A stretch of 64,000 nucleotides of DNA from Cyanophora paradoxa CCMP329 (Eukaryota > Plantae > Glaucophyta): contig QPMI01000395.1 of NCBI GenBank assembly GCA_004431415.1, positions 1 to 64,000 on the forward strand, in the 5' to 3' direction. Made by a program: the position numbers and the translations under genes. Below the pieces are notes generated by a model, which worked only from the letters and a program-made list of their open reading frames with translations, ran no database searches and was not told the origin of the DNA. Shown here piece after piece: positions 1 through 37,406 of the stretch (the first letter of the stretch is position 1; every line of letters starts with the position of its first letter).

Positions 1-2719
1 AACATAAGCCCCAATTGCAACAGGCTTATCTAGCTTCACATGTTTTGTGTAAAACTCAAAGGCAACTGCTCTTTCGTTTATGGGACTTGTTGATTTCACC
101 AATGGAGAGGCTGCATATTTCATAAACGTTTCTCACTGTTTGCAATCTTAACCACAGATCTACCTCTACATGATTCAATGCATTTCCCATAGATTGAGTT
201 ATTCATGAGCTTATAGAAATCAGCCTCGAATTTATTCACTGCTTTCCTTCTCATCTCAGTGTTCAGCTCAATATAGGGTTTCATGACAGGAGCCACAGTA
301 AATGATAGGACCCTGTGAACCTTCTTTAATTTCACCCCTTTGTCCAACAGATACTGTAGAGAGGCTCAGAAATCACATAGTTTGTCACAGAACAAAGGTT
401 GCAGTTAGCTTAGGGTCTTATCAAGCTCTTCTCTGAAAGATCTAATAGGCTCTTTGATATTGTGATAATTCGGCATATTCTACTATTTTCTTGTTAATAA
501 TTAGGGGGAAATCACTGTGATCTAGAATAGCCTAATTGGGTAATCCAGATCAACTTCTAGGAAACTGGATCTGTTATCTTGTGGGTTGAATTCGGTCTCC
601 CATCTAAAATCACCAACTGGGATTGGCTGACTCAAACAGTAGCCATACAAGTTGTTAGCATCAAACAGCATTATATGGGAGTTCACCATCGCCTCAGCAT
701 ACCTACAGGGCATTGTTGCAAAGCCACCCCTGATTCCCCTCTCAACAAATTCGTATTGCTCTACATCACTGATAGTTCTATTTTGCCTTGGTGGTCCTAA
801 GCATAGCATCCCAAGATAACCCAGGTGCAGATACATAATGAACTGGGTCAATCCATATACTGAGTGTGAAAGCCTTCTGAAGGCCTTGGAATTTGTTCAT
901 TAACTCACTCACATCAGCAGCTCCGAAATCCATGAAATTGCTTGCATCAATGAACTTGTAAAGACCCCATTGCAATGAAAGGTATTGATCAAAGTTTTTC
1001 GAAAGGATTTCGATTCGCTTTTTATCACCCATGCCTGCTATTTTTCTGAAAATGAATGTCCCACAGTCATCCATTTGGTCAACAACAACTGCAACTTTGG
1101 TTTGCTTTGAGATTCTCCTATGGAGATTGCAGTTTCTGCATGCAGGAGCAATGTAATGACCTGTGTGGTGATCATGATCTCTGCATTTGAAGTTTTCTTA
1201 GTGAACCTCTCACTGCAAAGGTAACAGTGTTTAGTAGCCCTGTAAATAGCCTTTTGCTCATCTGTGAGTTCATTCATTGGAATATTGGTGAACAGGAAAT
1301 CGATTAGTTCTCTAGCTTTGGACTCCAAGCATTCAAAGAGACCTCCCATTGGATCCTGCCCTCAAATCGAAAATCTTGAACATCTTCCCCAGTGACTACT
1401 CTAGGTTGACTGCTGAGACTTCCCTCTTGGATTTCGATGCATCAATGGGGATGCTTCTATGTTCAATCTTGCAGTAGACCACAACAGGAAGCCAAACAGT
1501 TTTCCTGAGGTTTTTCAGTCCAAACTCTATGGTGGTCTCAGGTTTAGGGTGATTCCCTTTGAGAGTCTCCATCAATGCATCTATTTGAGTCCACATGAGC
1601 AGTGAGTTTAGCCTCAGACCTGAATCGAGATAAGCATGTGTCACAGTAGTGTAACTTCTGATCATTGTATGTTTCATGGTTTACTTTCAATAATCTGAAA
1701 GGGACATGATTGTAATATAATGACCATTCCCTTCATCATCAAATATCAGCATGAGATTAACCTTATGCTTTCTGCCTGGGTTACTGGATTGATGCAGGGG
1801 ATAAAAACCTCTCCATCGATTCCGAATATATTAATGCTAATGCCTGCATTTTGAGCCTCGAATTTATCAATAATCTCAGCATACAGGCAACAGGGAATGG
1901 GATGTTATCGAAATTCAGAGCAAGAGGATTGTAAGCGATTGGTGAGTATTTCCATTTGCGATATTGGGAAAGCTCATTCCTCTTATGGGAGTTAATAGAT
2001 TTTCTGTAAATCGAGGCCTAAAATCGCATTTTCGAAGCAGGAATCATCAATATTTCGAATATTCACTGTGGCTCTCTTCCTAGCAATCCACTCTGGGTTT
2101 GTAGAAAGCATCCACCAGTTGGAGCATAACTCATAATAGCCACTCTGAGTATTTCAATTCTTTCTAAGCGATAGCTATCAACCACATTCATCTGCTCCTG
2201 ACACATTTGGGCTGCTTTATTCAGCTCAGTTCGAATATTTCTCGACCTGGTTAATACAAAGTAATCACTGTAAATGTATTCGATATCCAAACTGTGGATT
2301 GCTCACTTTTACGAACTTGCAGATAAAAGACAAGCGAACCTTGATTGCCCTGAATTGATCTAAACCTGCTTTAATCGATTGGAAGGGATGTAGCAATTCT
2401 GTCCAGGAATTCAATCACATCTACAACAACTTCCCTTCTGGCTCTGTAAGTGAGCCAGCGATATAATTCATTCATGGCTGTTCCATCTTCTGCCTCAGGT
2501 TCTATTTGCCTTAGGCGATCCAGTTCATCCAAGGTTTCAATTTTATCATATAGGTTATTTGCTTTTCTGGTTAATCTGGCTAAAGTGGGTCTCCCTTTGC
2601 AATTAAATCTATTTCCCGTCATATTCAGCCTCTGTAATTTCATGGGCTGCATAAAGTGTTCCCAGCAATCCATGAGTTCCCATTTCTTCTCCTTATGAGT
2701 TTGTTGGTAATTCGGGCAT
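1..2719 (-). CDS. Polinton-type (protein-primed family) DNA polymerase B of element A; many frameshifts, 3' part outside the window
   Basis: ORF fragments 2371-2673, 2063-2290, 1396-1677, 1038-1349, 778-1074, 522-851 and 120-347 are colinear with the intact frame at 23988-26525; motif A DANNLYG, motif B KLMNNSIYGK and the SAPGLSWDAML signature are present. Confidence 0.92.
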
Positions 2720-3369: not shown

Positions 3370-5960
3370 CTAAACTTCAACATCAGAGTCATAATCTGAT
3401 GCATCAGGATCAGCAGCAGGTAGTTCTTGTTTCATCCTTGGATTAGCTTCTTCCTCAATGGTCTCATCATCTACAAGCTTCATCTTTCTGAATTCCTCAA
3501 ATACTTGTGGGAATAGGAAATGATAGTATTGTTTACCATTTGTAGTTTTCACTTGGATATATGTAACACTTCGCATTTCTGTATAATATCTGCGACTATT
3601 ATAATCGTTTTTATATTTATTGCTGGTAATGAACTCCTGGAACCATTTCCAGGTTTCCACAAGGCTACCAGACTTGCATTTATTCTCGGAAATTAAGCCT
3701 CGATCCACAAGCCACTTAGTGAACATAAGGATGATTGGAGCGCACACCTGCTGGGCTAAATAGTATTTATTTGTAAGGGGTCTATCAGCAATCCAGTTCA
3801 CATCCTCACATTCAACTTTGGTTCTCAAATAGTGGGCAATGTTTCGAATATTGCAGTGATCATTAAGCCATTTTACAAGTGGAAGGAAGTATGACCTATC
3901 CTTTGCGAATTTCTTACTAACTTCAACAACCACAAATCGCCTATCTCCAGCTTCAATTTTAACTGGAATGTTGTTATTGCTGGTGAATATAATCCTGGCA
4001 AAGTTGCTTTTTGTGTATGAATCTATCCCTTTGTGTTCAATAACAATCTTATCAGAAGTAATGAGATCTTTAAGCATATCATTATTTTCGAATGTGTCCT
4101 TGCCTGAGGCTTCATTCACAACAATCAAGATCTTATCCTCTCTATTGTGGGCAAATCGACCAAACAGATCCTCTTTTGGCTTACCAGTTGCATAACTCAG
4201 GGCATCTCCAAGTATCTTCTTTTGGAAAGTATCAACCAACACATTCTTACCAGTTCCCTGTTCACCAATGAAGATTAAGGATACTCCATTGAGTTCCCCA
4301 GGCTTTTGCAGCATGTGGGCAAACCATTTCAACAGATATTCATAGGTATTTTGATCCTCACCAGACATTAAGAACAAGTGATCAAGGAAAGGCTTAATCA
4401 TCTCAGCAGTTACATCCTCTGGAGCATTTTCGAATTGCTGATGGTCGACCTTCATTCCTGGATAGAGATTAAATACAGACTTGCATTTTGCACTGAGAGT
4501 AGCAGGAGGTGGGAGGAAATCCATGTAAGTTGATCTTGTGGCTGTTGGATCCACAATCCATTTCCTAAATGATTGCTCCCATTTCTCTTTCTCATTATCT
4601 GTCCCTCATTCACAATCACCTTATGCATCAAGTGGGGGAAATGCTTTGTAGACAGTTTTCCAATGTCTTTGGGCATCCAGCAAAGTAGTTGTTCATCCCA
4701 GAGCATCACACAACCAACATTTTCAACATGATGCATGCGAGCATTGAAATACCTCTTATGCACATTGTAATGTTCAGCAAAGGAGGGATACTTGCAGTCT
4801 TGTAATCGATTTCATCTGTGTCCTCTGGTAGGAATGCATACTTTTTGGGAAGAGTTCCTTGAAAAGCTCATTGTTATCTTTGCTCAACCAATAAACCAAG
4901 GATTTGAAGGTCAACACTTTGCCAGGCTCAGCCTTCTTCTTGCTTCTGCGAAGCTGTGTAAACTTTTCCTGGCATTCATCATAATCATACTTGTCACTCT
5001 GTTCTGAGAATTGGTGGAAGAGTTCAGCCTGCATTTTAGGGGTAAATTTGTTGTCTTCCCCAACATTGATGATGACCAGTCCAACATCAATCCAAGTCTT
5101 ATACTCGCTGGCTCTTTCAGCATTGAGACCCATTATAACACTTTGTAGCAGTTCGAAAGTAACAGGATTTTCGGGTTCAGTGTCTTTTTCAGCTTCTACC
5201 TTCTCAGTCTTCACTTTATCACTTTTTGGCTCCTTTTTAACTGGTTTTGGCTCAGGAGTATAATTTGCAAATGCAGAAATATTTGATTCATCCACAAGTT
5301 TAGTAGTAGCTGAGAAGTAAGATACAAAGAAGTCCTCATTTCGCATTAACACTTTGTCACAGTCAACGAATTTCTTAAAGCAAACGTTTTATCAACATCT
5401 TTTTTCGACTTATTTTGAGCATCCAGAGTCTCACCTTTGCAGCAATTGAGGCAGATTAGGTTCTGTGTGGAGCTGTAAACTCCACTGTCATAATCCTCAT
5501 TTTTCACCAATCCCATCGCTTTGAAAAGCTTGGGGATATCTTCATGTTTGCATGCAAGCGATTTAATAATAAAGTGGGCTGAAATCTTGAACTTGGTGAC
5601 ATCCTCCTTAATCAAATAAACCCTTCTATGGCGAACTGCAACAGCAATATCGTTAATAGAAGTGGTACCAGATCGCTTCCATAGCTTATCTCTCATCTCT
5701 CTTACAACAGTTTCCGCCTCAGCATAGTTATCAGCAATGTTCTCCTTCAAATCAGCGAATTTATCCAGGTCCAGGTAAACTCTGGTCACTTGCTCAGGTT
5801 GAATGCATTCAGCCCAGGTCTTAACCTTGCTATTATCAATGGCTTCAAGGGCATCTTCGGCAGAATCAAATACATGGGTGACCTTGTTGCGATCACCAAT
5901 GAGAGTACTAAGGAATGTAGCATTTTCAACAGGGGTGGCGAATTTCTCGATTTTGTTCAT
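3370..5960 (-). CDS. AEP primase - PriCT-2 - superfamily 3 helicase fusion (split by frameshifts into 4 ORFs)
   Basis: 5346-5960 has AEP motifs RVYLDLD, SAHFII and DSGVY; 4774-5352 is PriCT-2-like (YKTWIDVG...FSEQSDKYD...SLVYW); 3370-4554 has Walker A GEQGTGKN, Walker B IVVNE, motif C IFTSNN and the arginine finger DRRF. Confidence 0.88.
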
Positions 5961-6176
5961 TTTCGATTTTGGGGACTTCTACCTTAACGAAGAAAATAAT
6001 TTCGGAAGGAGGAATTGTCTTTTATATATATCCTATTATTTGCCAAGTCCTTAAGTAGTTTTGGGTCGGGATACTGTCTCGATATATAGGTACAGTTTTA
6101 AAAAAGAGGGAAGAAAGCTGTCATTTTTTTGCCTCCGATCAAATCGATTTCTACAAAATTTGTTTCGATCGAGAAT

Positions 6177-11216: not shown

Positions 11217-11245
11217 TCTTCTTTTATCTATATTTATATATTAAA

Positions 11246-23199: not shown

Positions 23200-23640
23200 T
23201 AAGTGGACTCAAGGTTGACTCATATTAATCGTAAAAGTAGTAAAAGTATATGGATTTTGTTACGAATTCAATGCAAGGGTTGACTAAGTGGGTTGAGTTG
23301 ACTCAAATTTCACAGGAAATATTTGGGACCTAAAGTTTTCTAAAAAGGATTTGAAAAAATGTGTCAACTCCCCCCACTTAGTCAACCCTGACCATAAACA
23401 GTAAGGATTTGAGCTAACATGTATCACAAAGTGAACATTTTGAGTCCACTTAGAAGATCCACTTTTGAAATCCAAGTTGATTTTGCTTGAAATTTCAAAG
23501 TTGATCTAAAAGTGAGTCCACCCTGATTGATTATGGTAACAAAGTTGACTAAGTTGACTAAGTTGAGTCATCTTAAGAAATTCAAAGAGACTAAGAGTTC
23601 AAAATGTTTATGAAAAGTGAGTCAACTTAGACCACTTCTG
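23200..23640. repeat. Element A subterminal origin-like region: copy of the 3178-3283 inverted repeat plus dispersed GTTGAC/GTCAAC/GTCCAC motifs
   Basis: GGGTTGACTAAGTGGGTTGAGTTGAC (23277) pairs with GTCAACTCCCCCCACTTAGTCAACCC (ending 23388); tandem AAGTTGACT units at ~23540-23570. Confidence 0.75.
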
Positions 23641-23654: not shown

Positions 23655-23912
23655 TATTTAATTGATTTAATCGGAAAAGAACATGATTTAATCGAATTTA
23701 TTGATATAATTCCGATTAGATTCATTTAGGATTCAATTAAGATCAATCGAAGTTATTGATATAATTCCGATTAACTACAATTAAGATACAATATCGATTA
23801 ATCGAGTTTATCGATATAACATCGATTAAATTAATTGAAAATGCATATAAAAATACGAAAAGTCATGTGAAAATTCAAATAAATTAATCGATTTTATTGA
23901 TATAACATCGAA
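23655..23912. repeat. AT-rich subterminal short repeats (TTAATCGA / TTATTGATATAA / ATCGAT)
   Basis: Repeated TTATTGATATAA(T/C) and ATCGATTAA units; an analogous tract lies at 37160-37400. Confidence 0.7.
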
Positions 23913-23914
23913 TC

Positions 23915-23987
23915 ACACATATGAATATTCATATTTTAATCCTGAGGCGGAACGCCGAGGGATTAAAATATGAATATTCATATGTGT
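23915..23987. repeat. Terminal fold-back hairpin of element A
   Basis: Perfect 28-bp arms ACACATATGAATATTCATATTTTAATCC (23915-23942) and GGATTAAAATATGAATATTCATATGTGT (23960-23987); the loop contains GGCG-GAA-CGCC. Confidence 0.9.
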
Positions 23988-26525
23988 AAAGAAGTCGCTT
24001 TCGAAATGGTTAGTAGATTCATGCCTGAGAAGAGTATTCAAACCAATGTAAGACTTCATGAATGGGGAAGTAGCGAAAGAGAGAACCTTATTTATTTTCT
24101 TGATTTCAACACCCTTTTTAACGATGTAATTAAGAAGAGGTCGAGCGATCACGTATTTATTCTTGGGCGTAAATGTCGCTGTAAGTTTGGGGTCTCTGCT
24201 GATCTTTTCGCCCGTCAGATCTAATAGTTTACGTTGATAATCACCAAGCATCTCATTGGTGATCACTTCTTTATTCACAATCAGTGGGAAATCGTAATGA
24301 TCTTCAAGAGTTGTGGGGTATTCAAGGTCAACTTCAATAAATGCGCTTCGACCCTCTACCTCTTTAAGTGCCTCTGTGACATCTTCCCATCGATAATCTC
24401 CGATAGGTAGTGGTTGGCTGAGAGCATACCCATAAAGATTATTTGCGTCCAACAAAACTATATGATCGTCAGCATTCTCTACCTTTGCGTATCGTGTGGG
24501 CATGGTAGCAAATCCACCTCTAATGGCTCTCTCAACAAATTCGTATTTCTCTACATCATCGATTAGTTCAATCTTAACTTTGGTGTGTTTGAGCATAGCG
24601 TCCCAAGAGAGACCCGGTGCGCTAACGTAATGTGCGGGATCCAATCCATATTGAGAAAACGCCAATTTGCGGAATGCTTCAAACTTTCTCATTAAATCGC
24701 CCACATCCACAGATTGGAAATCCATGAAATGGGAAGCATCAATGAACTTCCACATGCCCCATTGAAGCGATAGGTATTGATCGAAATTCTTGCTCAGAAT
24801 CTCAACACGAAGTTTATCGTCTTGCTGTGCAATCTTGCGGAATATTCCGTGTCCGCATTCATCCATGTGATCCACCACGATAGCTACTTTGGTTTGCTTC
24901 GAAATTCGCCGGTGGAGGTTACAGTTTCGGCATGCCTTTCCGATGAAATCGCCGGATTGGTGGCAATGATCTCGAACCGGGAAGTTTTCGTGGGTGAATC
25001 TCTGAGAGCAAATGTAACAGTGTTTTGTTACCTTGTATTCCGCCTTCTGATCATCTGTGAGTGGATGCATCGGAATATTTCTAAATAGCGTCTCAACGAT
25101 TTCGGGTCTGATATCTTGGAGAGTTACAAAGAGAGAACCGAGCGGATCGATTCCCTCGAAATGGTATGCTCTCACTTCGTCTCCCATTACCACTCGCAAT
25201 GAAACCGCTTTAATCTCACGTTTACTCCTCTGAGCATCAATAGCGACCGAATGATCTTCGACTTTAACGTAACAGATCACAGGGAGCCACACAGTTTTAC
25301 GCAAGTGTTGCAGACCGAATTCAATTACGCTTCCCGCTTTTGGGCATTTGCCTTTGCTCTCCCTCCAATCAATGCAGCGATTCGCTTCAACATGCATGTC
25401 TAATTTCTCCTGAGTTCTGAAACGCGACAAGCAGGTTTCACAGTAGTAAATGCGACCATCACATGCTTTATCAAACGTAGTTTTCAGAAGACGACTAAAA
25501 GACATGATAGTAATGTAGTGTCCCCGATCATCTTCGGTGTTTTCGATAAGTAAAAGATTAATCTTGGTCTTTCTTCTTGGGTTACTTGATTGATGGAGAG
25601 GATAGAAACACTCTTTGGCGTTATCGGCTCCGTAAATGTTAATAGAGAGTTCGGGGTTCAGTTCTTCGAATCGATCGATTACCTCAGCATCACAGGCAAC
25701 GGGAAACTGAATACCATCGAAATTGAGTTCATTTAACCATCGGCGGTATTGGCTCGGTTCGTTACTCTTGTGTTTATTGATGTCCTTTCGATGCAGGTAA
25801 GCCAAAATCGCATACTTGAAGCAATCTTGCCCGTCGATATTCTTAACATTCACCGTCGCTTTCTTGGATGCGATCCATTCGGGAGTTGCGAAATAGCATC
25901 CTCCCACAGGTGCATAAGACATGATAATGCCTCTAAGTATTTCGATCTTCTCCAAACGGTAACTATCCACTTGCGTCATTTCCTCTTGCATTTTCTGTAA
26001 CGCTTTGCGAACTTCTGTGTCTATGTTGCGGGATCGGGTAATTACGAAATAATCGCTGTAAATGAATTTGGTGATATAGATGCGCGGATTACCTACTTTG
26101 GTAAATTTGCAAACGAAAGTCAGACGGACTTTAACGGCTCTCAGTTGCTCTAAGCAGGTTTTAATGCGTTGCGGTAGACTTGGTGCGATTCTTTCGAGGA
26201 ATTCGATAGCATCCACGACAACTTCATTTCGGGCGCGATAGGTCAACCACGAATACGCTTGATTCATCGCTTGTCCATCTTCGATATCCGGTTCAATTGC
26301 TCCTAATCTCTGTCCTTCACCCATAAATTCCTCCATTCGTTGCATGCGATCGTAGAGGTCATTTGCAATCTCAGTGAGTTGACCTAATCGCGGTCGTCTA
26401 TCTAAGATGGCGGCTTCTCTATCGTATTCCGCTTCGGTGATCTCACCTGTAACTAAGAGAGTTCCTAACAATCCAAGTATTTCATTTTTCTTTTCTTTGA
26501 TCAGTCTGTTCGTTTGGCGGGGCAT
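23988..26525 (-). CDS. Polinton-type DNA polymerase B of element B, truncated just before motif B
   Basis: N-terminal region, OTU-like protease motifs (NIDGQDCFKYAIL...GHYITI), C2H2-like CETC..H, endonuclease VII-like Zn module (HCYIC...VRDHCH...CRNCNL), SAPGLSWDAML and motif A DANNLYG. Homology stops at FESDFF; the last 24 aa of ORF 23913-26525 are read from element A's hairpin. Confidence 0.93.
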
Positions 26526-26567
26526 CTTTGCTATAAAGGAACATTTTTATTTTGGATTTTGAACGCA

Positions 26568-26726
26568 TTAAGTTCTAATGATTCTCACCGTTGTTTCCTT
26601 TGGAATATATATAGTAACATAGTTTCTCTTCCGCCTGTTATTGATACCACAATTATACTTTATGAACTTTGCAACCTCTTCCAAATCACCTTCCACAACC
26701 GATTGGTTCATTTTGACGCTATTCAT
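26568..26726 (-). CDS. Small hypothetical viral protein
   Basis: Short ORF in the slot occupied by GIY-YIG in element A, preceded by two AAAATTGA motifs; no recognisable domain. Confidence 0.4.
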   Translation of the reverse strand: MNSVKMNQSVVEGDLEEVAKFIKYNCGINNRRKRNYVTIYIPKETTVRIIRT

Positions 26727-26786
26727 TTTCAACTGAGACACACGTTCAATTTTTAAATCACCAGTCAATTTTTTATTTTTTATTCG

Positions 26787-26878
26787 GTGTAACGGGTGTA
26801 ACAGGTAAATCCCAAAGTTTTCGGATTTTCACCTCCCTAGGAGCGAAGTTTGGGATTTACCTGTTACACCTGTTACAC
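26787..26878. repeat. Element B internal inverted repeat (30-bp arms with GGTGTAACA iterons), putative replication origin
   Basis: GTGTAACGGGTGTAACAGGTAAATCCCAAA pairs with TTTGGGATTTACCTGTTACACCTGTTACAC (1 mismatch), ~70 bp downstream of the helicase stop. Confidence 0.8.
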
Positions 26879-26946
26879 TTACTGTTTTCAGTAAGGTTAT
26901 AAAAAAAAGTATGAATTATCAGTAAGAATAGTATGTTTTGTTGTAA

Positions 26947-29289
26947 TTAGTTGGGAGCCTCTACGTCGTCGTCATCGTCGTCCTCAATCATAATCTTCTT
27001 TTTCAGTCCGAAGTAACCACGCTTCACCTGACCTCTTTCTCGAACAGTTTCAGACTTCACATTAAAGACTTCGCGGACTCGCTTTCCAATACTGGCGGCA
27101 TCGGTTTTATCATCAACAGAACGATAGCCAGTAATGATAGCTTCACTCCTAATGAAATCGTTTCGGCTTCCAGTCTTCTCATAAGTGCTGCGGAGCCACT
27201 CCCCGATTTTATCGTTATCATTGAAGTATTCCAGTCCCTGATCGATGATAGACTGTGGCGGATTCATCAGCAGCTGTGCAAGATCCTGTTTCTTCCACAT
27301 GTCCAAGAAGATCGACATTTGAGCCATCTTGTATTCGTCGTCATTCATGATGGACATAAGTGAAGTATCCGCTTTCTTCTCACCAGGTTGAGGGTTGGGC
27401 TTGAAGACGCAAGAGAAACGATAGTAAGAGAGTCGCCGGTAAATCGCAGCATCGGGTTTACTCATCCCCAGGTTCTCATTCGTCGATAAGAAGATTTGAC
27501 CCATAGGAATGTAGGTAACAGGATCTTTGAACAGGGCGCGAACCTTCATCTCGTTACCACCTGTAATCTCTTTGATCTTGCTAATTTGAAGCTTGTCGCC
27601 ATCTTCCGCTTCATTTGAAAAGATAATGCGACGACCCAGAATATCCGCAAGTTCAGGTGTAGCGTCTGATGCATTCTTTTTCGGTTTCGTCCAATATGAC
27701 ATATTGATTGTTCCGAAATACTGTCCGAATGTTTGCTTGACCATCTCCTGAACGAGAGATTTACCATTGGCTCCAATTCCAGTCCAGAAATTGAACTTTT
27801 GAATATCTGTGCGACCACTCAGAGAGAAAGCGATCGAACCCATCACGAAATTGCGCTCAATTTCCTCTTCGATGATGTCAGAGTAGATGGAAAGGATCTT
27901 GGTGACTTTCACAGAATCCACCTCGGGGCAATAATCATAACCAACAGTCTTACTGATCATGTCTTCTGGGAGTCCCCTTCGGAAAGTCATAGAATTCAGA
28001 TCAAATACGCCATTTGTGAATCCAATCACATTGGTAACAGTATCAAGTCTCTCGAAGAATGTCTTATCGTTCATCAGAACTGTGAGATCAGACAGAAGAG
28101 AAGTTCGGTAATTAGTCTGTTTGAGTTTCTTTGCGATACCAAGAAGAACCTGTGATCTCTCCTCCAAAGATGCACGATTCTCTTCATCACGAAGCGCTCT
28201 CTGAGCGAATTGCACAGCACGTTGAAGATAAGCCGGGCAAACCCTGCAACTCAAACACAGATAGATTCGTTTCCCGGTCTCATCCATCTCCCAGATTCCG
28301 TAAGCCTCGTTGAACTTGAACCACGTCTTGTTTGAATACTTGTAGCTGTCTCGCAGAACAAGAAAAGCAACCTGGGCAACATCATAATGTCCGCCATCAG
28401 ATCCAATCGACCGATCAATTAGCTTTTCAATCTGAACATCGGTATCAGCTTGAACGCGAACCGTCATAACTCGCTTCTTGCAATTGGTGCTATAACTTGA
28501 AACAATATACTTGTCTTTCTCGTTCCCTTGAAGTATATACCAATTGTTGGAGTCATGGCTTCCCTTGCAGCAGGGACAAATCAGACCTTTGTTCTCAGCA
28601 GTGAAACTGTAACCCTTCTCGGTCTCATTAATGATTGTGGGTAAGATGAAACCAAATTCTTCAAGTTTCCGGAGAATGTGTTTCTGCAAATCCTCTTCAA
28701 TGCTCCTATCAATAGAAGAGTGTCCGCCTTTCGGAAAAAGGTAGTTGTCAATCATCCACTTTTGGAGTTCAGCACTCGGTTCGATCAACTCACAGCCTTC
28801 CGCCCATGGTTCTCTGATCCAAGTTTTACCGGGGCTTGGGGAAACGTTGATCAACCCAGCAGTTCCAGTGGACGCAATTGTCTTACAGTCGATCTTAGGA
28901 TAACCTTTGAAAGCACCCGCTTTATCCCAGATCTTCACAGCATCGAAGTCAGAAGGACGAGAGAAGTAAACATGATATCCTTTTTTGGTTTTAGCAAGAG
29001 GATTGACACCACCGAAATCATCGGGGAATTGCTCCTCGAATTTGGTGAAATCCTCCTCTTGGTCGAAGTCGATAACCACGATATTGCGAGCGAGAATGCC
29101 CCAAGCAACATACTTACCGGATTTCAGGGCTTCATCGAATTTATCCCAAGTCCACGATCCGTCTTTATGGGCGAAAAGGGGTTTTTTGGTATCGGGATCA
29201 ACGGGTATTACGATATTCTCAGACAGGACATCGTCTTCACGAAGCCAATCAACAAGGCGTTTCAGGGATTTCTTGGCGGCAGCGTTCAT
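26947..29289 (-). CDS. Prim-Pol-type primase - Zn finger - D5-like SF3 helicase
   Basis: IVVIDFD and KTKKGYHVYF (Prim-Pol), CPCC..SH Zn site, D5_N-like IGFTNGVFDL...FR...PED.IS..VGYDY, Walker A GIGANGKS, KEITGG and AIYRR. Confidence 0.9.
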   Translation of the reverse strand: MNAAAKKSLKRLVDWLREDDVLSENIVIPVDPDTKKPLFAHKDGSWTWDKFDEALKSGKYVAWGILARNIVVIDFDQEEDFTKFEEQFPDDFGGVNPLAKTKKGYHVYFSRPSDFDAVKIWDKAGAFKGYPKIDCKTIASTGTAGLINVSPSPGKTWIREPWAEGCELIEPSAELQKWMIDNYLFPKGGHSSIDRSIEEDLQKHILRKLEEFGFILPTIINETEKGYSFTAENKGLICPCCKGSHDSNNWYILQGNEKDKYIVSSYSTNCKKRVMTVRVQADTDVQIEKLIDRSIGSDGGHYDVAQVAFLVLRDSYKYSNKTWFKFNEAYGIWEMDETGKRIYLCLSCRVCPAYLQRAVQFAQRALRDEENRASLEERSQVLLGIAKKLKQTNYRTSLLSDLTVLMNDKTFFERLDTVTNVIGFTNGVFDLNSMTFRRGLPEDMISKTVGYDYCPEVDSVKVTKILSIYSDIIEEEIERNFVMGSIAFSLSGRTDIQKFNFWTGIGANGKSLVQEMVKQTFGQYFGTINMSYWTKPKKNASDATPELADILGRRIIFSNEAEDGDKLQISKIKEITGGNEMKVRALFKDPVTYIPMGQIFLSTNENLGMSKPDAAIYRRLSYYRFSCVFKPNPQPGEKKADTSLMSIMNDDEYKMAQMSIFLDMWKKQDLAQLLMNPPQSIIDQGLEYFNDNDKIGEWLRSTYEKTGSRNDFIRSEAIITGYRSVDDKTDAASIGKRVREVFNVKSETVRERGQVKRGYFGLKKKIMIEDDDDDDVEAPN

Positions 29290-29495
29290 TTCGATAATCG
29301 GGGGTGTCTTATCTATGATGGAGAAAAGAGTTTCTCCGGATTCCTGTCATTTTTTGGCGGCTAACCTTTAAGTGGTTGATATCTCTTCAATTACCAAAAA
29401 CGGCAATCGGGAGATGGTTACGGATCTATCGAAGCATATCGATAGACCGCTCGAAAAATGAGTAATTGGGTTCAGCGGTCAAATGGGTATTTCCC

Positions 29496-29732
29496 TCAAT
29501 ACTTTCGTGGACGTCCCCGTGACTTGTTTTCGATTCCCTCCCGCTCCTTACGACGATAATATGAAGCGAGCGATTGCGCCTTCTTATACTCCCGATAAAC
29601 GGGGTCTTCGTTGTAGAGCGTTCGCTTCCTTAGAGCATCTCTCATCTTGTAATTGGCGCGGGTCTCCTCTTCTTCATCGCCGAATTCGACAACGCTAATC
29701 ATGTCTTCGGTTATATGAATTACAGTCGCCAT
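29496..29732 (-). CDS. Small basic protein with C-terminal AT-hook
   Basis: Ends SRGRPRKY; homologous to two element A ORFs; the ATG at 29732 is preferred over the longer non-ATG start. Confidence 0.72.
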   Translation of the reverse strand: MATVIHITEDMISVVEFGDEEEETRANYKMRDALRKRTLYNEDPVYREYKKAQSLASYYRRKEREGIENKSRGRPRKY

Positions 29733-29808
29733 GTTCCCCTTTATATGTAGTTGAGAAAATGTTTTACCACTCTGTATTATGCCTGATGTCTTTAAGTATT
29801 TTATGGTG

Positions 29809-29919
29809 TCATTTTTTGTTGACCAAAGCCAGTTGGTGTCTACGTTCTTCAATTGCAGATTTAACGGCGTAAATCCTTCGTTTCGATAGTATGATGTCGT
29901 AGATCTCTTCGAGTGACAT
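29809..29919 (-). CDS. Conserved 36-aa viral hypothetical protein
   Basis: MSLEEIYDIILSKRRIYAVKSAIEERRHQLALVNKK aligns with 6552-6674 (Y.II..KR..YA...AI). Confidence 0.55.
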   Translation of the reverse strand: MSLEEIYDIILSKRRIYAVKSAIEERRHQLALVNKK

Positions 29920-29940
29920 TTGATACCATAACCAAAGATA

Positions 29941-30158
29941 TTATTTATGATCGTTATGCGAAAACGATCGGCGACGGACAGTCTCAGTTTCCGTAACGGT
30001 GACTGTCTCAGTTGTTATCGAATCTTGCGATTGCCTTCGCCCTCCATTGCTTCCACCATCTGAGAAATCCATTTCGAATTTCGTATCGCAGCAGTCATTG
30101 TGACAATCGGTTACGCAATGCATCTCAAACATCTCAATGATCTTTTTCAGAAACTCCA
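29941..30158 (-). CDS. Small Cys-rich viral protein
   Basis: MEFLKKIIEMFEMHCVTDCHNDCCDT, homologue of 6883-7155. Confidence 0.7.
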
Positions 30159-30185
30159 TTGATTCCCTCTTTAAACAATATATAA

Positions 30186-30917
30186 TTAAAGCCAAACTCT
30201 CCGCTTGTATGCTGTGGGAGCTACACCTTTGTCGACTTCCGCTTTGGTAGCACCAGGTTCAACAGTTCCCTTTTGGGTCTTTGTCTTCAACTCATCTACC
30301 GCTTGTTCGTCAATTTGGGTCTCCTTCTTACCAATAAACTGCTTATCAGGAACACCAGTAATACCCATTCGGAATACCTCTTTGCGCAGCATTTCCTTGA
30401 TTTTCGATCGCTCCTTCTTCTCAGTTACATACTGTTCAAGAGCGCTTGATTTTGCTTCCAGATCCTTTAATTTAGCGGTCATCTCATCCCATTGCGCTTT
30501 CGGGATTCGGTGGATGTTTTGAGTTGGCGCAACCTTGTAAGTAACTTCACCAGCCATCGATTGAATTACCTTGTCGGATTCTTTGGAAACACCTTCACCC
30601 TTGCGAGCGAGGGAAAGATCTTTGAGACCGAGTTCACGATCATCGGCAGCACCGATAATCCGACGGGCGCCTTCACCGACCGCCTTCATCTTCGAGACTT
30701 CCGGCGAGATGTTCAATTGCTCACTTTGGGATGTTTGCGGCGCTTTATCACCGGGCGCTTCTTCATAAGCGGCATTTAAGGGGTCTTCTTCCTGTTGTGA
30801 TGGTTTCACTTCGCTCATTCCGTTGAATTTCATGGGTGTGGTGTTGAGAGATCCATGACTTTCACCGCCGGAATATGACATAGCACCAGCGGGAACACCT
30901 CTACGTTTCGGCGGCAT
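30186..30917 (-). CDS. Conserved viral protein starting MPPKR (candidate core/virion protein)
   Basis: 243-aa intact ORF, highly similar to 7178-7911, directly downstream of the ATPase. Confidence 0.82.
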   Translation of the reverse strand: MPPKRRGVPAGAMSYSGGESHGSLNTTPMKFNGMSEVKPSQQEEDPLNAAYEEAPGDKAPQTSQSEQLNISPEVSKMKAVGEGARRIIGAADDRELGLKDLSLARKGEGVSKESDKVIQSMAGEVTYKVAPTQNIHRIPKAQWDEMTAKLKDLEAKSSALEQYVTEKKERSKIKEMLRKEVFRMGITGVPDKQFIGKKETQIDEQAVDELKTKTQKGTVEPGATKAEVDKGVAPTAYKRRVWL

Positions 30918-30945
30918 TGTATATTTATAACATACAGAGATAATT

Positions 30946-31728
30946 TTACAATCCCCTCTTATATCGCATCAACTTATTCGTGTGAACAGCGCTCTTTATC
31001 TCTTTCGGCGCTTCCTCCTTCTCGGGTGGTTTTAATTCGTCTTCTTTCTTTTTGGGCTTTCTGTGAAACCGAGGAAACCCAAACTCTTTAACGAGTTCCG
31101 CTTTATCAACATAGTATTCCACCGAATAATTCGCAGAACTCCAAATGAGAAACTGATAGGAGTGAACGTATTCCTCAAACATCTTATAGAAAGCGTCTTT
31201 ATCCCGCATGATATTGTATTCTTCTTCAATGGCTTCCAGTTCTTTGCGATTGGCGGCACTAAGGAACATTGCATAATCCGAATTAACGCGAATGGTTGAA
31301 GAAACCTTACGCAGTTTCTGAGTTATGCAGATAATCGAAATTTTCGAATGTCTTCCACGGCTGTAAAGACTTCCAATAATTTTATCACGGGTTAGATCGA
31401 CTATCTCATTGTCTATAAGATCATCGAGAACGACACATAACTGGTTAACGGGTTCTCCTTTCTCAATTTTCTCTTGTCTTTCATCGAGAAGTTTAGCGAT
31501 GTAAGGCGCATCCCATTTACCGAGTTGCAATGTTGCTACTTTATCCCAGAAATGATTGAAACTCGTCCCACTTACAACGAGAACCACATCTATCTTTTTC
31601 GCATCATGTAGCTGTTTTAGCCAATACTTGACCGCTTCGCTTTTACCCGTCGCAGATTTTCCAATTGCTAAGACACGGAATGGTGGGTTTATCATCTCAC
31701 CAGCATTAAATTCGGGAACGTCAGACAT
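30946..31728 (-). CDS. A32-like genome packaging ATPase
   Basis: Near-identical protein to 7940-8722; the true start MSDVPEF is at 31728. Confidence 0.93.
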   Translation of the reverse strand: MSDVPEFNAGEMINPPFRVLAIGKSATGKSEAVKYWLKQLHDAKKIDVVLVVSGTSFNHFWDKVATLQLGKWDAPYIAKLLDERQEKIEKGEPVNQLCVVLDDLIDNEIVDLTRDKIIGSLYSRGRHSKISIICITQKLRKVSSTIRVNSDYAMFLSAANRKELEAIEEEYNIMRDKDAFYKMFEEYVHSYQFLIWSSANYSVEYYVDKAELVKEFGFPRFHRKPKKKEDELKPPEKEEAPKEIKSAVHTNKLMRYKRGL

Positions 31729-31789
31729 GGCGTAGTAGATTCTTCTTAATAAAGATAGATAAAAATAACGAAATCTTACTGATAATGGT

Positions 31790-33190
31790 TTAGAGATTAA
31801 TGCGGCGAATTCCGTCCTTATCGACAATAATGAACGAATGCATGAGAGCGCGAACGTTAACAGTAATTGTGCGATCAGCAGGAAGATATAGAGTGAGGAA
31901 TGATGAAGACGAGTTCGTAAGGTCAACATATCCAGATTGGGCAATGTTGCGAATCGCCTTCTCACCATCAACACAGAATGGGAATCCAGTAAGGACGTAA
32001 CGGTTTGCTTCCTTGTCCATATTCGAGCATTTGAAGGCATCGGCGATGAGTTCCGCACCTTTGAGTAGCGGGATCGGCTCCGTCGAATAAAGACGCTGTC
32101 CGTTGATCTCACAAGTCATCGTGATATCCTTCGCATTCGCAAGCGTTTTAAGGACGCTGTGAGAACCATTCGAGGTATCGACACCATCAGCATCACGAAC
32201 AGAGACAAGAAGAGCATAAACGAGACCGGAGATTTGGCTAAGATTAATTCGGTTGGGTTGAGTGTTACCTTTTGCAGCAACAGCGATAGAATCGACGAAA
32301 CCGATGTCGAGAGCGGGAATAGCCATCCCTGTGGTCTTAACCTTCTCAATAACAGTTGCAAACAGTTCATCAGAAACGTTGATAGCATGCATGTAGAGAC
32401 GAGGTGCTTTAATGGAGATGTAATGGGTCATTGGTGGAACAGTTCCAGCAACTTCGAACCCAGTAATACCGCCAGTGGTGATGTTTTGACCAACATTAGC
32501 AAGTGTAACGCTCGTAGCATTTCCAAGTCCATCATCTGATGATTTATCAGCAGCAGTGCTTCCTACAACAGGAAGAGAGCGACCACCATAAGAAGTTTCA
32601 AGGTATCCCTTGTTAGCTTCCTTAAACCACACAGTGATGACGGCTTCACCCGAGAGAGCGCCAAGTGGTAGATAATGGTTCAACCACGGCACCGGAATTT
32701 CGACGAAGAAAGCGCCACCTTTACGGTTGGTTCCGTGAGCGGGGATACCATGAAGCATTCCCATTGAACGCTTCTTTTTCGCCAGTTGATCCTCAGAATA
32801 GTAGACCAGTGGGAAAATCGCCAGGAAATCAGACGGCACGTGGTAGGTATACGAGCCATACGAGAATTCAAGACGCTCTACAAGCGCACCGACGGGACGA
32901 GTGTAACCATTTCGCACCAGGTCGTCATCACCAGTAAAAGCAGTTAGTTCGGGAAGATCGAAAGCGAGTTCGATTTTACCGACAAAGTTGTAGCGGGGAA
33001 GTTTGAAAGAAACGCGTTGACCAACGTTGTTATCGTAGGTTGTCGATGGACTAACGGTTACCAGAACGGGTTTCGTCTTCGATTCAAGACCAAGCATAAG
33101 CGAGTTATCGAGGAAGAACGCTTTGGCTTCCTCGGGCGTTGTAAGCGCCTCTTTCAGAGAAAGACGTTGAAGGGTCGAGGTAACATCCAT
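31790..33190 (-). CDS. Double-jelly-roll major capsid protein
   Basis: 466 aa, beta-rich; N-terminal pattern G.RVSFKLPR...L.FDLP.L....Y..PVG.LVERLE..YG and VEIP.PW...LPL.AL...ITVWF resembles NCLDV/PLV capsids; lies between the ATPase and the penton. Confidence 0.87.
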   Translation of the reverse strand: MDVTSTLQRLSLKEALTTPEEAKAFFLDNSLMLGLESKTKPVLVTVSPSTTYDNNVGQRVSFKLPRYNFVGKIELAFDLPELTAFTGDDDLVRNGYTRPVGALVERLEFSYGSYTYHVPSDFLAIFPLVYYSEDQLAKKKRSMGMLHGIPAHGTNRKGGAFFVEIPVPWLNHYLPLGALSGEAVITVWFKEANKGYLETSYGGRSLPVVGSTAADKSSDDGLGNATSVTLANVGQNITTGGITGFEVAGTVPPMTHYISIKAPRLYMHAINVSDELFATVIEKVKTTGMAIPALDIGFVDSIAVAAKGNTQPNRINLSQISGLVYALLVSVRDADGVDTSNGSHSVLKTLANAKDITMTCEINGQRLYSTEPIPLLKGAELIADAFKCSNMDKEANRYVLTGFPFCVDGEKAIRNIAQSGYVDLTNSSSSFLTLYLPADRTITVNVRALMHSFIIVDKDGIRRINL

Positions 33191-33244
33191 TCTGTTTTGC
33201 TTTTACTATACAAAAATATAAAAATTCTGTGAATGATCCTTAAT

Positions 33245-34249
33245 TTACGCGAATCCGGCAATATTTGGATAGAAGGGGTGGGTCTCTCTCATTCTCATTT
33301 TGAAATACTCATAAATTGGGTCACCGGCGGGTTCATCACCATAACGGATCTCGAATGTCAGATGCACAGGTTGACCTTCGAAATCGATTAATTCATTTTG
33401 ACCATTCACTACATCTACCGATAGTTGCGATAGTGATAGTTTCTTATTATAGTATTTATACAGCGGATTTGCTTCCGTCGAATTGTAAACAACGTGTTCC
33501 GCAAAGTCTTTATCTTGAACCGTGAGTTTATGGAAGTATCCAGTAAGGAGACCATCGGCACATTGGACGAGGTCACCAAGTTCTTTTACTCTCACGAAAA
33601 AGACGTTATCTTTACAGGTCTCTGTGGGGAATGTTGAGATAATACCGTTTACATTTGCACCTGTAAAAACGGAACTTGTATCTGTTCCATAGACTTGTGA
33701 TTTAATAAACTTGTTTCCCCAGCGTCCAGCATCCAGACCCAAGATTCGAGCGTGTCGTAGCGCTTTCTCGATTGCGGAAACAGAAGGATCTTTTGCATAT
33801 GAGAAGCAAATATAGAATTCCACAGGAGCATAAAAGATAACTCTTTTTGCGGTTACATCCCAACCACAGCGAATTGCAGAAGGAGGCGAGAGATTCTCAA
33901 AACGGTTATTGATTCGGGCAACGAGTTGCTGATGAGTATTGATTGGGGTTTTTAGACCTGCACCAGGTCTAATAGAACGCCAACTATCATATAGAATCTC
34001 AGGAGCATTTGCACCGGTGGATGTGGACTTTTGGCTGAAATTGATAATAAAGGCATCCTCTATTGTTGCATCCCCAGGTTCTGTTTCACCGCTAATGAGT
34101 GGGATGGAGTTATAGAATTCAGCGGAGACGAGGCGAACCGCTCTTACATTCTCATACGTCTTTGGAAGATCCGCAACAAATCGTGATGTTGGAGCATCCA
34201 GATTAGGTATTGTTTTGAAGGAAGACACTTCAACGTATTCCACAGGCAT
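33245..34249 (-). CDS. Minor capsid (penton) protein 1
   Basis: F...LPKTYENV..VRLVSAEF.NS and LSQLSVDVVN..NELIDFEG..VHLTFEI. Confidence 0.82.
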   Translation of the reverse strand: MPVEYVEVSSFKTIPNLDAPTSRFVADLPKTYENVRAVRLVSAEFYNSIPLISGETEPGDATIEDAFIINFSQKSTSTGANAPEILYDSWRSIRPGAGLKTPINTHQQLVARINNRFENLSPPSAIRCGWDVTAKRVIFYAPVEFYICFSYAKDPSVSAIEKALRHARILGLDAGRWGNKFIKSQVYGTDTSSVFTGANVNGIISTFPTETCKDNVFFVRVKELGDLVQCADGLLTGYFHKLTVQDKDFAEHVVYNSTEANPLYKYYNKKLSLSQLSVDVVNGQNELIDFEGQPVHLTFEIRYGDEPAGDPIYEYFKMRMRETHPFYPNIAGFA

Positions 34250-34277
34250 CTTCTTTTATCTATAACCATATAATAAA

Positions 34278-35189
34278 ATGATTCGGCTTGTCAATGTCGA
34301 TAGTAGAGATCGATTAGATGGACAGAAAGAAAATGCTTACAAGGTCTCACTTACCACACCAATAACCAGACCGCGACAGTGTCGTATCTTATATGCAGAG
34401 ATTCCCAACAGCATTTATAATTCGATTGGAACCGATTATATTATAGTTCGTTATAACATTGGTGGTTTCATCCTTAATCAGCAAGTATTCCCATTACCAA
34501 GTGGTTACATAAACCAAGGACACTTTGGAGTTACTCAACCATATAATTACGGTTTAAACTTTGCGGTTACTGAAAACATATTATTTAAGATCTACTACAA
34601 TCCAACGACATACAAGTTAGAGTTTTACAGTAACTATCAATTTGAACTCATCGCAGGAAACAATAGAATCGCAAAATTATTGGGTCTGAGTTCCACGGTA
34701 TTATTAGGTAGTGTAGCGCAGGTAATCGAAAACAATCGGTCTTTATATGCTCCCGAAAATATCTTATTTTATGCAGGGACTCCGATAACACCAGATCACC
34801 CACAATGGGGAATAACATTTGAAGGAGCAGAATTAGTAACGGCACCAATTGCGTTTAAAGCAGTTAGTCCAAAGATGGCGGATATGAACGCTGAGCAATA
34901 CTTGTATATGCACATCAAAGAACTCTCTTCTTTTGCATCCAACCACAATATAGTCCCGAAATCGCAACCGCAGAATCAAGGCGCGATCTTGCGATTACAA
35001 TTGAGTCAGGACATCGGGAAGTATGTTTACCATAGCGGAGAGCATGGTGAATACATAAAAATAACAGACAAAAACCTTGTTATTCGTGAATTAACAGTTG
35101 AATTTCGTGATTATTTTGGTGATCTTGTAGATATGAATGGTATCGATAATTCGTTTCAGTTGGAGTTTGTAGCTATTGGAAACGATTAG
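34278..35189 (+). CDS. Minor capsid (penton) protein 2
   Basis: VNVDSRDR...AEIPNSIYN and LTVEFRDYFGDLVDMNGIDNSFQLEF; homologue of 11246-12178. Confidence 0.85.
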   Translation: MIRLVNVDSRDRLDGQKENAYKVSLTTPITRPRQCRILYAEIPNSIYNSIGTDYIIVRYNIGGFILNQQVFPLPSGYINQGHFGVTQPYNYGLNFAVTENILFKIYYNPTTYKLEFYSNYQFELIAGNNRIAKLLGLSSTVLLGSVAQVIENNRSLYAPENILFYAGTPITPDHPQWGITFEGAELVTAPIAFKAVSPKMADMNAEQYLYMHIKELSSFASNHNIVPKSQPQNQGAILRLQLSQDIGKYVYHSGEHGEYIKITDKNLVIRELTVEFRDYFGDLVDMNGIDNSFQLEFVAIGND

Positions 35190-35790
35190 CTATTGGGATA
35201 TATGGTTTGAAGATATCAGCGACAACACCATTCTGATCCTCTGTATACCATCTGTTGTTTTCGCGAACCCAACGAGCGCCATTTTGTTTAAGGTATTTAC
35301 GTAGAGTCGCTCGGTTCACAATCTTCCATCCATGCTCTTCAAACTTAGCATGATAAGCACGAAGATCTCTTGGAATGTGGAAATAGTAACGTTCACGATG
35401 TTCTTCTTGTCCATAGCATATCCCAATTGCATTAATTACGTCATCGTGAGTCTTTGTAGTGTTGAAAAGAAGATCATGAAAATTAACAACAACGATGAAA
35501 TCAAGTTCAGCATTACGCACTTCATTAAGATGGCTAAACTTACCATGATCATTATAATTCACATGATTATAGAAGAACCGATCATCGCGAGTTCTCGCAC
35601 AAATCCGATCCGAATTTCTCCGAAAATAACCAAAACAAACCATTTGATCCATTCCAGGATAAGAGTATGTTCCAATCTTTCGATGCAAAACCTCAATAGT
35701 TTCAGCAAGATCAAGAATATCCTTCACACCAAATCGCATTTCAGCAATCGGAACCGAGAAGATCGGCTCACCTTCGAAGAGATACGCCAT
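35173..35790 (-). CDS. Hypothetical viral protein (205 aa) in the accessory slot
   Basis: ATG-initiated ORF convergent on penton 2 (same position as patatin in element A), preceded by an AAAATGATTTAAG motif; no recognisable domain. Confidence 0.65.
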   Translation of the reverse strand: MAYLFEGEPIFSVPIAEMRFGVKDILDLAETIEVLHRKIGTYSYPGMDQMVCFGYFRRNSDRICARTRDDRFFYNHVNYNDHGKFSHLNEVRNAELDFIVVVNFHDLLFNTTKTHDDVINAIGICYGQEEHRERYYFHIPRDLRAYHAKFEEHGWKIVNRATLRKYLKQNGARWVRENNRWYTEDQNGVVADIFKPYIPIANRFQ

Positions 35791-36044
35791 GACACTGAAT
35801 TACGTCTGAGAAAATCTTTTACCCGGTTTACTCTATACTGTCGCTTCTTCCTTAAATCATTTTGGGTTGCCCACGAGCATCATTTTTTGAAAGTAAGACC
35901 TCCGTAATATCTAAATTGATAGATGAGAGAATAACAGAGATCTTTTCAGGGTTGGAGAAAGCGGAGAAGCAGATAGCAGCGCGATTTCCGAGTTAATCAC
36001 ACTGAGATTTTGAAGAAATATAACATGTCTTATTGAATATCGTC

Positions 36045-36322
36045 AGGTGTAACAGGTGTAACAGGTAAATCCCAAACTTCGCTCCTAGGGAGGCCAAAAA
36101 CCCAAAACTTTGGGATTTACCTGTTACACCTGTTACACCTTGGGATTCACCTGTTACATCTATCAAACAAAGCATTAATATATTCGATTCCTTACATTGA
36201 TTATAGTGTCATGTAACAGGTGTAACAGGTGTTTCCCAAACTTTCCTCATAGGAGATGAAAAATCCAAAACTTTGGGATTTACCTGTTACACCCGTTACA
36301 CCTTGGGATTCACCTGTTACAC
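36045..36322. repeat. Two subterminal copies of the element B GGTGTAACA inverted-repeat unit
   Basis: 36046-36138 is an inverted copy of 26787-26878 including the spacer (CTTCGCTCCTAGGGAGG); a second diverged copy is at ~36212-36320. Confidence 0.85.
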
Positions 36323-36325
36323 ATT

Positions 36326-37115
36326 GATTATCGACTGTTTAATTGGACATGTTACACTTGAAACACAATTTTGATACAGTAAAAAACAGAATCCAATCTT
36401 ATCAATTGTTTAATTGGACATAATGCAACTCTGGGGTCATTTTTGATACAGTAAAAATCTCAACCGAATCTCATCGATTGTTTAATTGGACATAATGCAG
36501 TAACCATCTCTTCCAACAAAATACGCCGCAATCTCATCAATTGTTTAATTGGACATAATGCAGTAACCATCTCTTCCAACAAAATACGCCGCAATCTCAT
36601 CGATTGTTTAATTGGACATAATGCAGTAACCATCTCTTCCAACAAAATACGCCGCAATCTCATCGATTGTTTAATTGGACATAAGGCAGTAACCATCTAA
36701 TCCAACAAAATACGCCGCAATCTCAACGATTGTTTAATTGGACATAATGCAGTAACGAGTGAATTATTTTCATCCGATATTTCATCGATTGTTTAATTGG
36801 ACATAATGCAGTAACGAGTGAATTATTTTCATCCGATATCTCATCGATTGTTTAATTGGACATAATGCAGTAACAAGTGAATTATTTTCAACCGATATAT
36901 CATCGATTGTTTAATTGGACATAATGCAGTAACCATCTCTTCCAACAAAATACGCTGCAATCTCATCGATTGTTCAATTGGACATAATGCAGTAACGAGT
37001 GAATTATTTTCAACCGATATATCATCGATTGTTTAATTGGACATAATGCAGTAACGAGTGAATTATTTTCAACCGATATTTCATCGATTGTTCAATTGGA
37101 CATAATGCAACTCTG
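36326..37115. repeat. Tandem array, ~13 units of 59-72 bp with a constant core ATCGATTGTTTAATTGGACATAATGCAGTAAC
   Basis: The core recurs at ~36330, 36401, 36473, 36536, 36599, 36662, 36725, 36784, 36843, 36902, 36965, 37024 and 37083, with two main linker types. Confidence 0.92.
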
Positions 37116-37159
37116 TGTGAATTTTTGCGATTTCCGATAGAATGGGCGGTGGACTACTT

Positions 37160-37400: not shown

Positions 37401-37406
37401 AGAAAA

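Follow-up and report, generated by a model that had tools for sequence, protein, structure and literature searches.

The window analysed here, a 64,000-nucleotide stretch of Cyanophora paradoxa CCMP329 (contig QPMI01000395.1), is AT-rich over its left 37.5 kb (approximately 40% GC, versus 50–75% rightward), and this portion consists of two related virus-like elements, designated A and B (Table 1). The two are similar at the DNA level across pPolB (64%), the ATPase-capsid block (75%) and a further structural gene (68%), and their right ends are also shared; at the protein level the identities are 64% for pPolB, 94% for the ATPase and 79% for the likely capsid protein. A direct scan of the window returned three palindromes in all, two of which are the homologous right ends of A and B. 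Both terminal palindromes have GAA apex loops, mismatches near the tip and a final TATGTGT, and in this they resemble an opened hairpin telomere. In each element the internal inverted repeat and the terminal hairpin are separated by tandem repeats, with a unit of 59–63 bp in B (36327–37168) and 55 bp in A (23687–23934). The third palindrome (47648–47716), located in the host part, has 19-bp arms and a 31-bp spacer, is unrelated to the element ends and is possibly a small non-autonomous transposon. Host ORFs were also noted at 52489–54690 and 43732–45831 (an ankyrin-repeat TRP-like ion channel; a weak RNase H match).

The palindrome of A meets the pPolB gene of B at the very start of motif B (23988–23990), and the residues FTHMN that follow the cut in the frame of B are palindrome sequence of A. 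As such, A has most likely inserted into the pPolB of B, a nested insertion to which a misjoin is the alternative, and the remainder of B should be found beyond the left end of A. The right flank of B (37493–38700) gave no Pfam match and by its motifs resembles a broken remnant of a Harbinger/PIF-type transposase; B itself may have inserted into another mobile element. At least three quarters of the sampled words of B are present in 20 of the 24 listed public runs, all of one organism, and four runs hold many variant contigs of the elements, which are therefore a multi-copy family in this host.

In gene content the elements agree with the Polinton-like viruses in the broad sense in their A32 packaging ATPase. 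The 454-aa ORF and two 300-aa ORFs by the ATPase are conserved between A and B, and as candidate capsid genes they returned no Pfam, PHROG or PDB match. Neither a retroviral-type integrase nor a Ulp1-type maturation protease was found among the scanned ORFs of the window, outside of which both left ends fall. Some 11 kb of A (12168–22924) are absent from B, and contain a discoidin-domain ORF, a patatin lipase, an S-adenosylmethionine decarboxylase and several fibre-like ORFs with C1q and H-lectin domains.

Table 1. Features of elements A and B, in coordinates of the window.
Feature	Position	Strand	Remarks
Element A	from left of window to 23987		left end outside window
pPolB of A	1..2719	-	runs off left edge before motif C
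Internal repeat pair, A	~3179-3359 and 23201-23626		unrelated to those of B
Primase-helicase region, A	3370..5978	-	three frame pieces: unassigned N-terminal piece, PriCT-2, SF3/DUF5906
Right-end palindrome (hairpin), A	23915-23987		abuts cut end of B's pPolB; fold z -11.4
Element B	23988-37492
pPolB of B	23991..26525	-	845 codons; cut at motif B by right end of A
Polymerase motif A, B	24429..24455	-	LLDANNLYG, intact
Deletion junction, B	24669..24746	-	FIDxxxFM joined to Exo III helix
Exo II remnant, B	24849..24875; motif DHMDECG 24872-24852	-	catalytic Asp absent
Endonuclease VII-like Zn-binding insert, B	24906..25040	-	within exonuclease domain; also in intact relatives
Exo I remnant, B	motif CYVKVE 25274-25257; Lys421-Glu423 25257..25265	-	Lys421 for Asp; Glu423 kept
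vOTU-like protease domain, B	25476..25910	-	Cys235 and His336 retained
Terminal-protein-like domain, B	25911..26240	-	~aa 96-205
Candidate priming Ser188, B	25962-25964	-	shortened DSY loop; most relatives read GSGW
Internal repeat cluster, B	26786..26878		between pPolB and primase-helicase; inverted partner 36045-36357
Primase-helicase, B	26947..29289	-	Prim-Pol, D5_N, SF3/DUF5906; one open frame
Virion module, B	30946..35189		homologous block in A ~7079-12169
A32 packaging ATPase, B	30946-31731		PF04665, E 2e-10
Likely major capsid protein, B	31790-33154		454-aa ORF; label from size and position
Two likely minor capsid proteins, B			300-aa ORFs beside ATPase; label from size and position
Right-end palindrome (hairpin), B	37406-37492		homologous to that of A; fold z -10.3

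The pPolB of B runs from a terminal-protein-like (TP) domain through a vOTU-like domain and an inactivated exonuclease domain, which bears an Endonuclease VII-like Zn-binding insert, to a palm with motif A and TPR1. In an AlphaFold2 model built from 65 sequences (pLDDT 87.1, pTM 0.65) the core of the exonuclease is kept, although the alignment behind the model consists mostly of intact relatives and may bias that fold. Residues 87–205 of the model match the Y-family little-finger fold (Z 9.3, rmsd 2.6, 104 aligned), which is the fold assigned to Polinton terminal proteins (PMC11161782, cited here and below for its available sections); the vOTU name is taken from the same sections, by position and motif, and the retained cysteine and histidine of this domain are invariant in all 65 aligned sequences. 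The Zn-binding insert scores below the curated cut-off with Pfam PF02945 (E 0.01), and at E 9e-5 with PHROG endonuclease VII. The best structural match of the whole model is phi29 polymerase (Foldseek E 2.9e-6; VIA Z 12.1, rmsd 3.9, 312 aligned), with model residues 414–845 lying on phi29 5–381. The fold is phi29-like and includes TPR1 and TPR2, the latter seen beyond the cut of B in a full-length relative described below. Viral structures matched by the model are adintovirus and bidnavirus-type polymerases, with a weak match to mavirus pPolB (E 2e-6).

As the sequence-only reading had stated, polymerase motif A is intact in both elements and motif B (YKLMNNSIYGK) is intact in A. The same reading had described the frame of one element as uninterrupted, and that is so for the 845 codons of B up to the point where the palindrome of A cuts it. 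The window copy of A carries the same exonuclease lesions together with up to 38 frame-changing indels relative to B by pairwise alignment; eight of its 18 one-base losses fall at homopolymers (background 0.37), which is no clear enrichment. Of the indel places, 11 (12 of 48 rows) were compared with the four runs, and at four of them every run departs from the window copy at full depth, so the breaks at these four places are copy-specific or assembly errors, and the A family need not be decayed.

Our central observation concerns the exonuclease domain, which was aligned between B and 270 homologues (the best 120 of 605 matches, the best 150 of 11,275 matches, and one cluster member). Alignment with these homologues bore out, on the minus strand and at the expected place, the earlier claim that lysine replaces the Exo I aspartate in both elements (the motif of A reads VYCKIE). 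Exo II had likewise been called altered, and is: in DHMDECG of B and DQMDDCG of A the column of the catalytic aspartate is a one-residue gap or a glycine, the one-residue loss being common to A, B and the relative P0002. Last, a segment of roughly 100 residues containing KG.YPYEY was held to be missing. From FxDS to DVFE B has 18 residues, where the median is 112 (5th–95th percentile 109–126) over the 256 of 271 rows spanning both anchors. The letters at the junction of B on the minus strand are FIDASHFM (24746–24723) followed directly by DFQSVDV..KFEAFR (24722–24669), and the counterpart in A is FMDFGAADVSEL..KF. Approximately 94 residues are gone from B, among them KGxYPY and the Exo III tyrosine, which is replaced by phenylalanine. 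The further claim that the catalytic carboxylates are lost holds for the Exo I and Exo II aspartates and fails for Exo I Glu423 and Exo III Asp607 (eight residues before the phenylalanine of DVFE), which survive in A and B; in both elements two of the four carboxylates and the Exo III tyrosine are lost, whereas P0002 has lost all four carboxylates. None of the three carries the DEDDy set of a 3'-5' exonuclease, that is, four carboxylates and the Exo III tyrosine.

A family-wide drift of the motifs was considered and rejected, as D-E-D-D is intact in 240 rows out of the 249 (B included in the 249) in which every site is covered. The nine exceptions are B, P0002, P0178, P0271, P0243, P0096, P0172, P0058 and P0238. 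P0178 and P0271 have a damaged exonuclease site, a deletion of their own and intact polymerase motifs; in P0243, Exo I has Asn/Gln and Exo III has Cys, with no large deletion; and P0096 has a single Asp-to-Asn change. P0172, with its short segment, resembles an intact-type protein whose gene prediction has been spliced, and was not counted as a loss; nor were P0058 and P0238, which look like alignment gaps. Such lesions are thus rare in the family, and from its residues we infer that the pPolB of the A/B lineage has no 3'-5' exonuclease activity. Structure prediction, which had been proposed as a check, bears on this in part: with phi29 polymerase as the best match, an ungapped first strand would put Lys421 on phi29 Asp12, a placement drawn from the ends of the matched range, and the correspondence of the second lost aspartate to phi29 Asp66 is by motif homology only. 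One could alternatively postulate a rebuilt site, in which Glu423 and Asp607, together with Asp552, Asp555 and Glu556 near Exo II, form a different metal site with residual exonuclease activity. A and B do keep the Exo I glutamate and Exo III aspartate and share acids around Exo II; yet the metal-bridging residue of Exo I is a lysine, the Exo III tyrosine and KGxYPY segment are gone, and P0002, with none of the canonical four, has no such acid at the same column, and we regard a rebuilt site as very improbable.

P0002 is valuable here in that it is a full-length protein of 1083 residues in a single open frame, 46% identical to B over the full length of B, with the same deletion and Exo II loss and no canonical exonuclease acid. 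Its polymerase motifs are intact (A, YLDCNNLYG; B, KLMNNSLYGK; C, SDTDS), and the intact motif C is read from P0002 only, as the window copies of A and B end before it. The spacings of 155 residues from motif A to B (median 161) and 99 from B to C (median 100) are ordinary, and TPR1 and TPR2 are kept at normal length; motif C is followed by a stretch 17 residues shorter than usual (28 versus a median of 45), and the protein ends 109 residues past the anchor that follows motif C (median 116) with no helicase fusion. We placed these proteins in a FastTree phylogeny of 89 sequences (79 best matches, 8 others and the test proteins, rows with more than 35% gaps dropped) over 452 vOTU and palm columns, excluding the exonuclease and rooting at the midpoint; its deep supports are low. 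B and P0002 group together in a single clade with support 1.0, surrounded by exonuclease-intact proteins, and P0178 groups elsewhere (support 0.88) at a distance of 2.5–2.6. The junction of P0178 (30 residues) and the replacements of its acids differ as well, and so its lineage likely lost the exonuclease site separately.

The best exonuclease-intact matches to the pPolB of B are about 30% identical, and a whole-length word search with this protein was empty; a region search and a full HMMER search found the homologues. The exonuclease region of P0002 gave eight matches, seven covering only 21–34% of the region. Scans of IMG/VR with pPolB, capsid, ATPase or P0178 returned one exonuclease-intact element and no member of the A/B/P0002 lineage; a metagenome scan (five loci) and a genome scan (11 loci) returned only exonuclease-intact, partial or decayed relatives; and phage records and PDB sequences gave no match. 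The contigs L007–L017, which carry Polinton-type pPolBs and in some cases integrase and capsid genes as well, come from bacterial and archaeal MAGs, where they are probably binning contamination.

Whether an inactivated domain is decaying or maintained can be judged from its rate of change. Between A and B, pN/pS is 0.31 over 779 codons and ranges from 0.24 to 0.42 over the domains; it is 0.34 in the exonuclease (170 codons) and 0.30 in the palm (198 codons), with synonymous sites near saturation. The identities of B and P0002 in the dead domain (0.36 and 0.44) equal those of 230 palm-matched pairs of intact proteins (medians 0.30 and 0.45). Among copy variants, taken from the best 40 of 640 rows, 34 fall in the frame of B and 30 of these are silent. 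Recent decay is rejected by the pN/pS values and by the match to intact pairs. The dead domain is as conserved as the palm, which argues for an inherited trait under selection, and the sequence-only reading, which had proposed as much, is further supported by the sharing of the lesions with P0002 at its present distance.

A mutator polymerase was one of two functions offered by the sequence-only reading, both of them weak suggestions. Proofreading loss should raise the error rate, as is established for family B enzymes, and it may be asked whether that loss was itself favoured, so as to diversify fibre or capsid genes. The host copies do comprise many sequence variants, and the stem branch to the clade of B and P0002 is long (0.59). 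However, the root-to-tip lengths of B and P0002 (1.26 and 1.15) lie inside the spread seen among intact relatives (median 1.12, top 1.53), so that protein branch lengths, a weak test, give no sign of a mutator lineage; furthermore, the listed variants are mostly silent, and errors could be tolerated rather than favoured. We hold a selected mutator to be decidedly improbable.

The genes adjacent to pPolB are informative in a different manner. The primase-helicases of A and B do not align (best E 1.0), and on the strength of this comparison they appear to differ in origin, with homologous genes on either side: a module has been swapped, likely together with its origins. Each helicase type is accompanied by a pair of inverted repeat clusters peculiar to it, the first adjoining the gene and the second close to the right end, and these clusters are likely the origins that serve the primase-helicase. 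Since pPolB and the ATPase align and the helicases do not, the partner has been swapped, a helicase has been kept, and pPolB has not been discarded. The link to a helicase is seen in two related elements of one host. Three loci with exonuclease-intact relatives (L006, L008 and L011; seven ORFs scanned in each) had no primase-helicase match; all have the ATPase and two of the three have integrase and capsid genes, and as there are only three, incomplete and chosen by pattern, they are a weak control.

One might suppose from this arrangement that pPolB is a relic being replaced by the primase-helicase, or else a separate, transpoviron-like module travelling with the capsid module. The internal inverted repeats enclose the helicase and capsid genes and leave pPolB outside, both window copies of pPolB are broken, and published dual-replicase genomes have been read as transient states or accreted modules (bioRxiv 10.64898/2026.07.28.741278 and 10.64898/2026.10.13.758929, in the sections available). 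Against this, every domain of pPolB is under purifying selection, its position is the same in A and B across the swap of helicases, the break in B is the insertion of A with P0002 whole, and the breaks of A at the four places noted above are specific to the copy or to the assembly. We therefore consider a relic or passenger improbable.

The reading toward which we lean, with modest confidence, is that of a polymerase which does not proofread, whose exonuclease domain is kept as a tunnel wall and which leaves unwinding to a helicase. In phi29, the template tunnel is built from the exonuclease domain and TPR2, the processivity element of that enzyme (PMC4974454, available sections), and the D12A/D66A double mutant, a standard exonuclease-null, is defective and not improved in strand displacement (PMC6351526, available sections). 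The positions changed in this mutant are the two lost here (Asp12 by structural range, Asp66 by motif homology), and this result led us to reject the suggestion, made from the sequence, of an enzyme specialised for strand displacement; the loss points instead to dependence on a helicase. The state in A and B is, unlike the mutant, natural and fixed, is accompanied by a deletion, and occurs in a protein with fused TP and vOTU domains. In the proposed mechanism, pPolB would copy DNA with no 3'-5' proofreading; the shell of the exonuclease would be retained as a lining of the template tunnel, together with TPR2, and as the link between vOTU and palm; and the helicase would take over the intrinsic strand displacement, relaxing selection on the exonuclease active site. 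Synthesis would start from the retained terminal-protein serine or, alternatively, from primase-made primers at the repeat clusters or from the terminal hairpin. Hairpin priming, which had been suggested earlier, is possible given the terminal palindromes, but the terminal-protein serine and the vOTU Cys/His are kept. A helicase-assisted replicase also matches what Krupovic et al. report for mavirus and Tlr1-type pPolBs, in which the gain of a helicase accompanies the loss of the exonuclease (PMC11161782), a precedent that the sequence-only reading did not mention. As a counterpoint, primase(-polymerase) domains are present in the primase-helicase genes, which could by themselves be enough to replicate the genome.

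A division of labour is the other reading to be weighed, in which replication of the main part of the genome starts at the repeat clusters and falls to the primase-polymerase/helicase, and pPolB makes or completes only the ends, by terminal-protein priming, extension of a nicked hairpin or fill-in at integration, steps at which proofreading would be dispensable and 3' degradation harmful. The homologous hairpin-forming palindromes at both right ends, the change of the repeat clusters together with the type of primase-helicase, and the retention of the TP serine and vOTU residues are consistent with this, as is the finding that palindromic ends in Halocafeteria mostly accompany non-pPolB replication genes (bioRxiv 10.64898/2026.07.28.741278). 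However, TPR2, the processivity element of phi29, is of normal length in P0002, and the left ends lie outside the window; we think an end specialist rather unlikely.

Among known systems, the polymerase studied here is close to the pPolB of Polintons/Mavericks (PMC11161782; 10.1101/2023.08.22.554363, available sections), with which it shares the order TP-vOTU-EXO-PALM, the EndoVII-like insert, the vOTU Cys/His, motifs A, B and C, and the spacing of TPR1 and TPR2. It differs in the loss of the Exo I and Exo II aspartates and of the deleted segment, in the neighbouring primase-SF3 helicase, and in that no integrase or protease is seen in the window. Jeong et al. describe the exonuclease motifs as conserved across taxon groups of 20,702 and 1,331 integrase-linked pPolBs (10.1101/2023.08.22.554363), and a Polinton-derived polymerase of Entamoeba with all four acids does proofread (PMC3511435). 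The mavirus-type pPolB (TP-vOTU-PALM) is likewise predicted to have no working exonuclease, has a separate SF3 helicase and keeps TP and vOTU; it retains only a remnant of the domain, whereas A and B keep most of the fold and the Zn insert under selection, and their nearest relatives are intact. Since B and P0002 nest among exonuclease-intact Polinton-type pPolBs, in a tree that does not include mavirus pPolB, the loss is most likely separate from that of mavirus, to judge from this placement. The Tlr1-like and transpoviron fusions of pPolB with an SF1 helicase also pair exonuclease loss with a helicase, but there the domain is absent and the helicase fused, at the C-terminus, where P0002 has none; A and B retain the domain in an inactivated form and have a separate, exchangeable SF3 helicase furnished with its own primase. 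Endogenous virophages and PLVs of Halocafeteria are palindrome-ended as well (bioRxiv 10.64898/2026.07.28.741278, in whose available text the word "exonuclease" has no occurrence). Palindromic ends, dual replicases and module swaps are treated in the available sections of PMC12721341, PMC13215967 and PMC10120064, and of bioRxiv 10.64898/2026.06.19.733378, 10.1101/2023.08.22.554363, 10.64898/2026.07.28.741278 and 10.64898/2026.10.13.758929. A Polinton-type pPolB with its exonuclease inactivated in place was not found described in the available main-text literature.

The A/B/P0002 lineage is a new and probably earlier-stage case of the trade-off between exonuclease and helicase already proposed for virophages. 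We would tentatively go further, to what is a possible rather than a probable account: A and B may be intermediates of a repeated path, in which strand opening is handed to an exchangeable cassette of primase-helicase and origin repeats, the chemistry of proofreading is lost and its shell kept, in a hairpin-ended virus with three possible priming routes, and which at least two separate lineages (A/B/P0002 and P0178/P0271) would have taken. The proposal of Krupovic et al. rested on two cases in which the domain is almost or wholly gone (PMC11161782, available sections), whereas here it is inactivated in place, with intact close relatives and a full-length natural protein in P0002, so that a side-by-side comparison of fidelity, strand displacement and helicase dependence can be made. 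As a matter of caution, a pPolB beside a primase-helicase need not be an outgoing replicase. If the account is true, the two lineages would provide natural series for testing the proposed trade-off.
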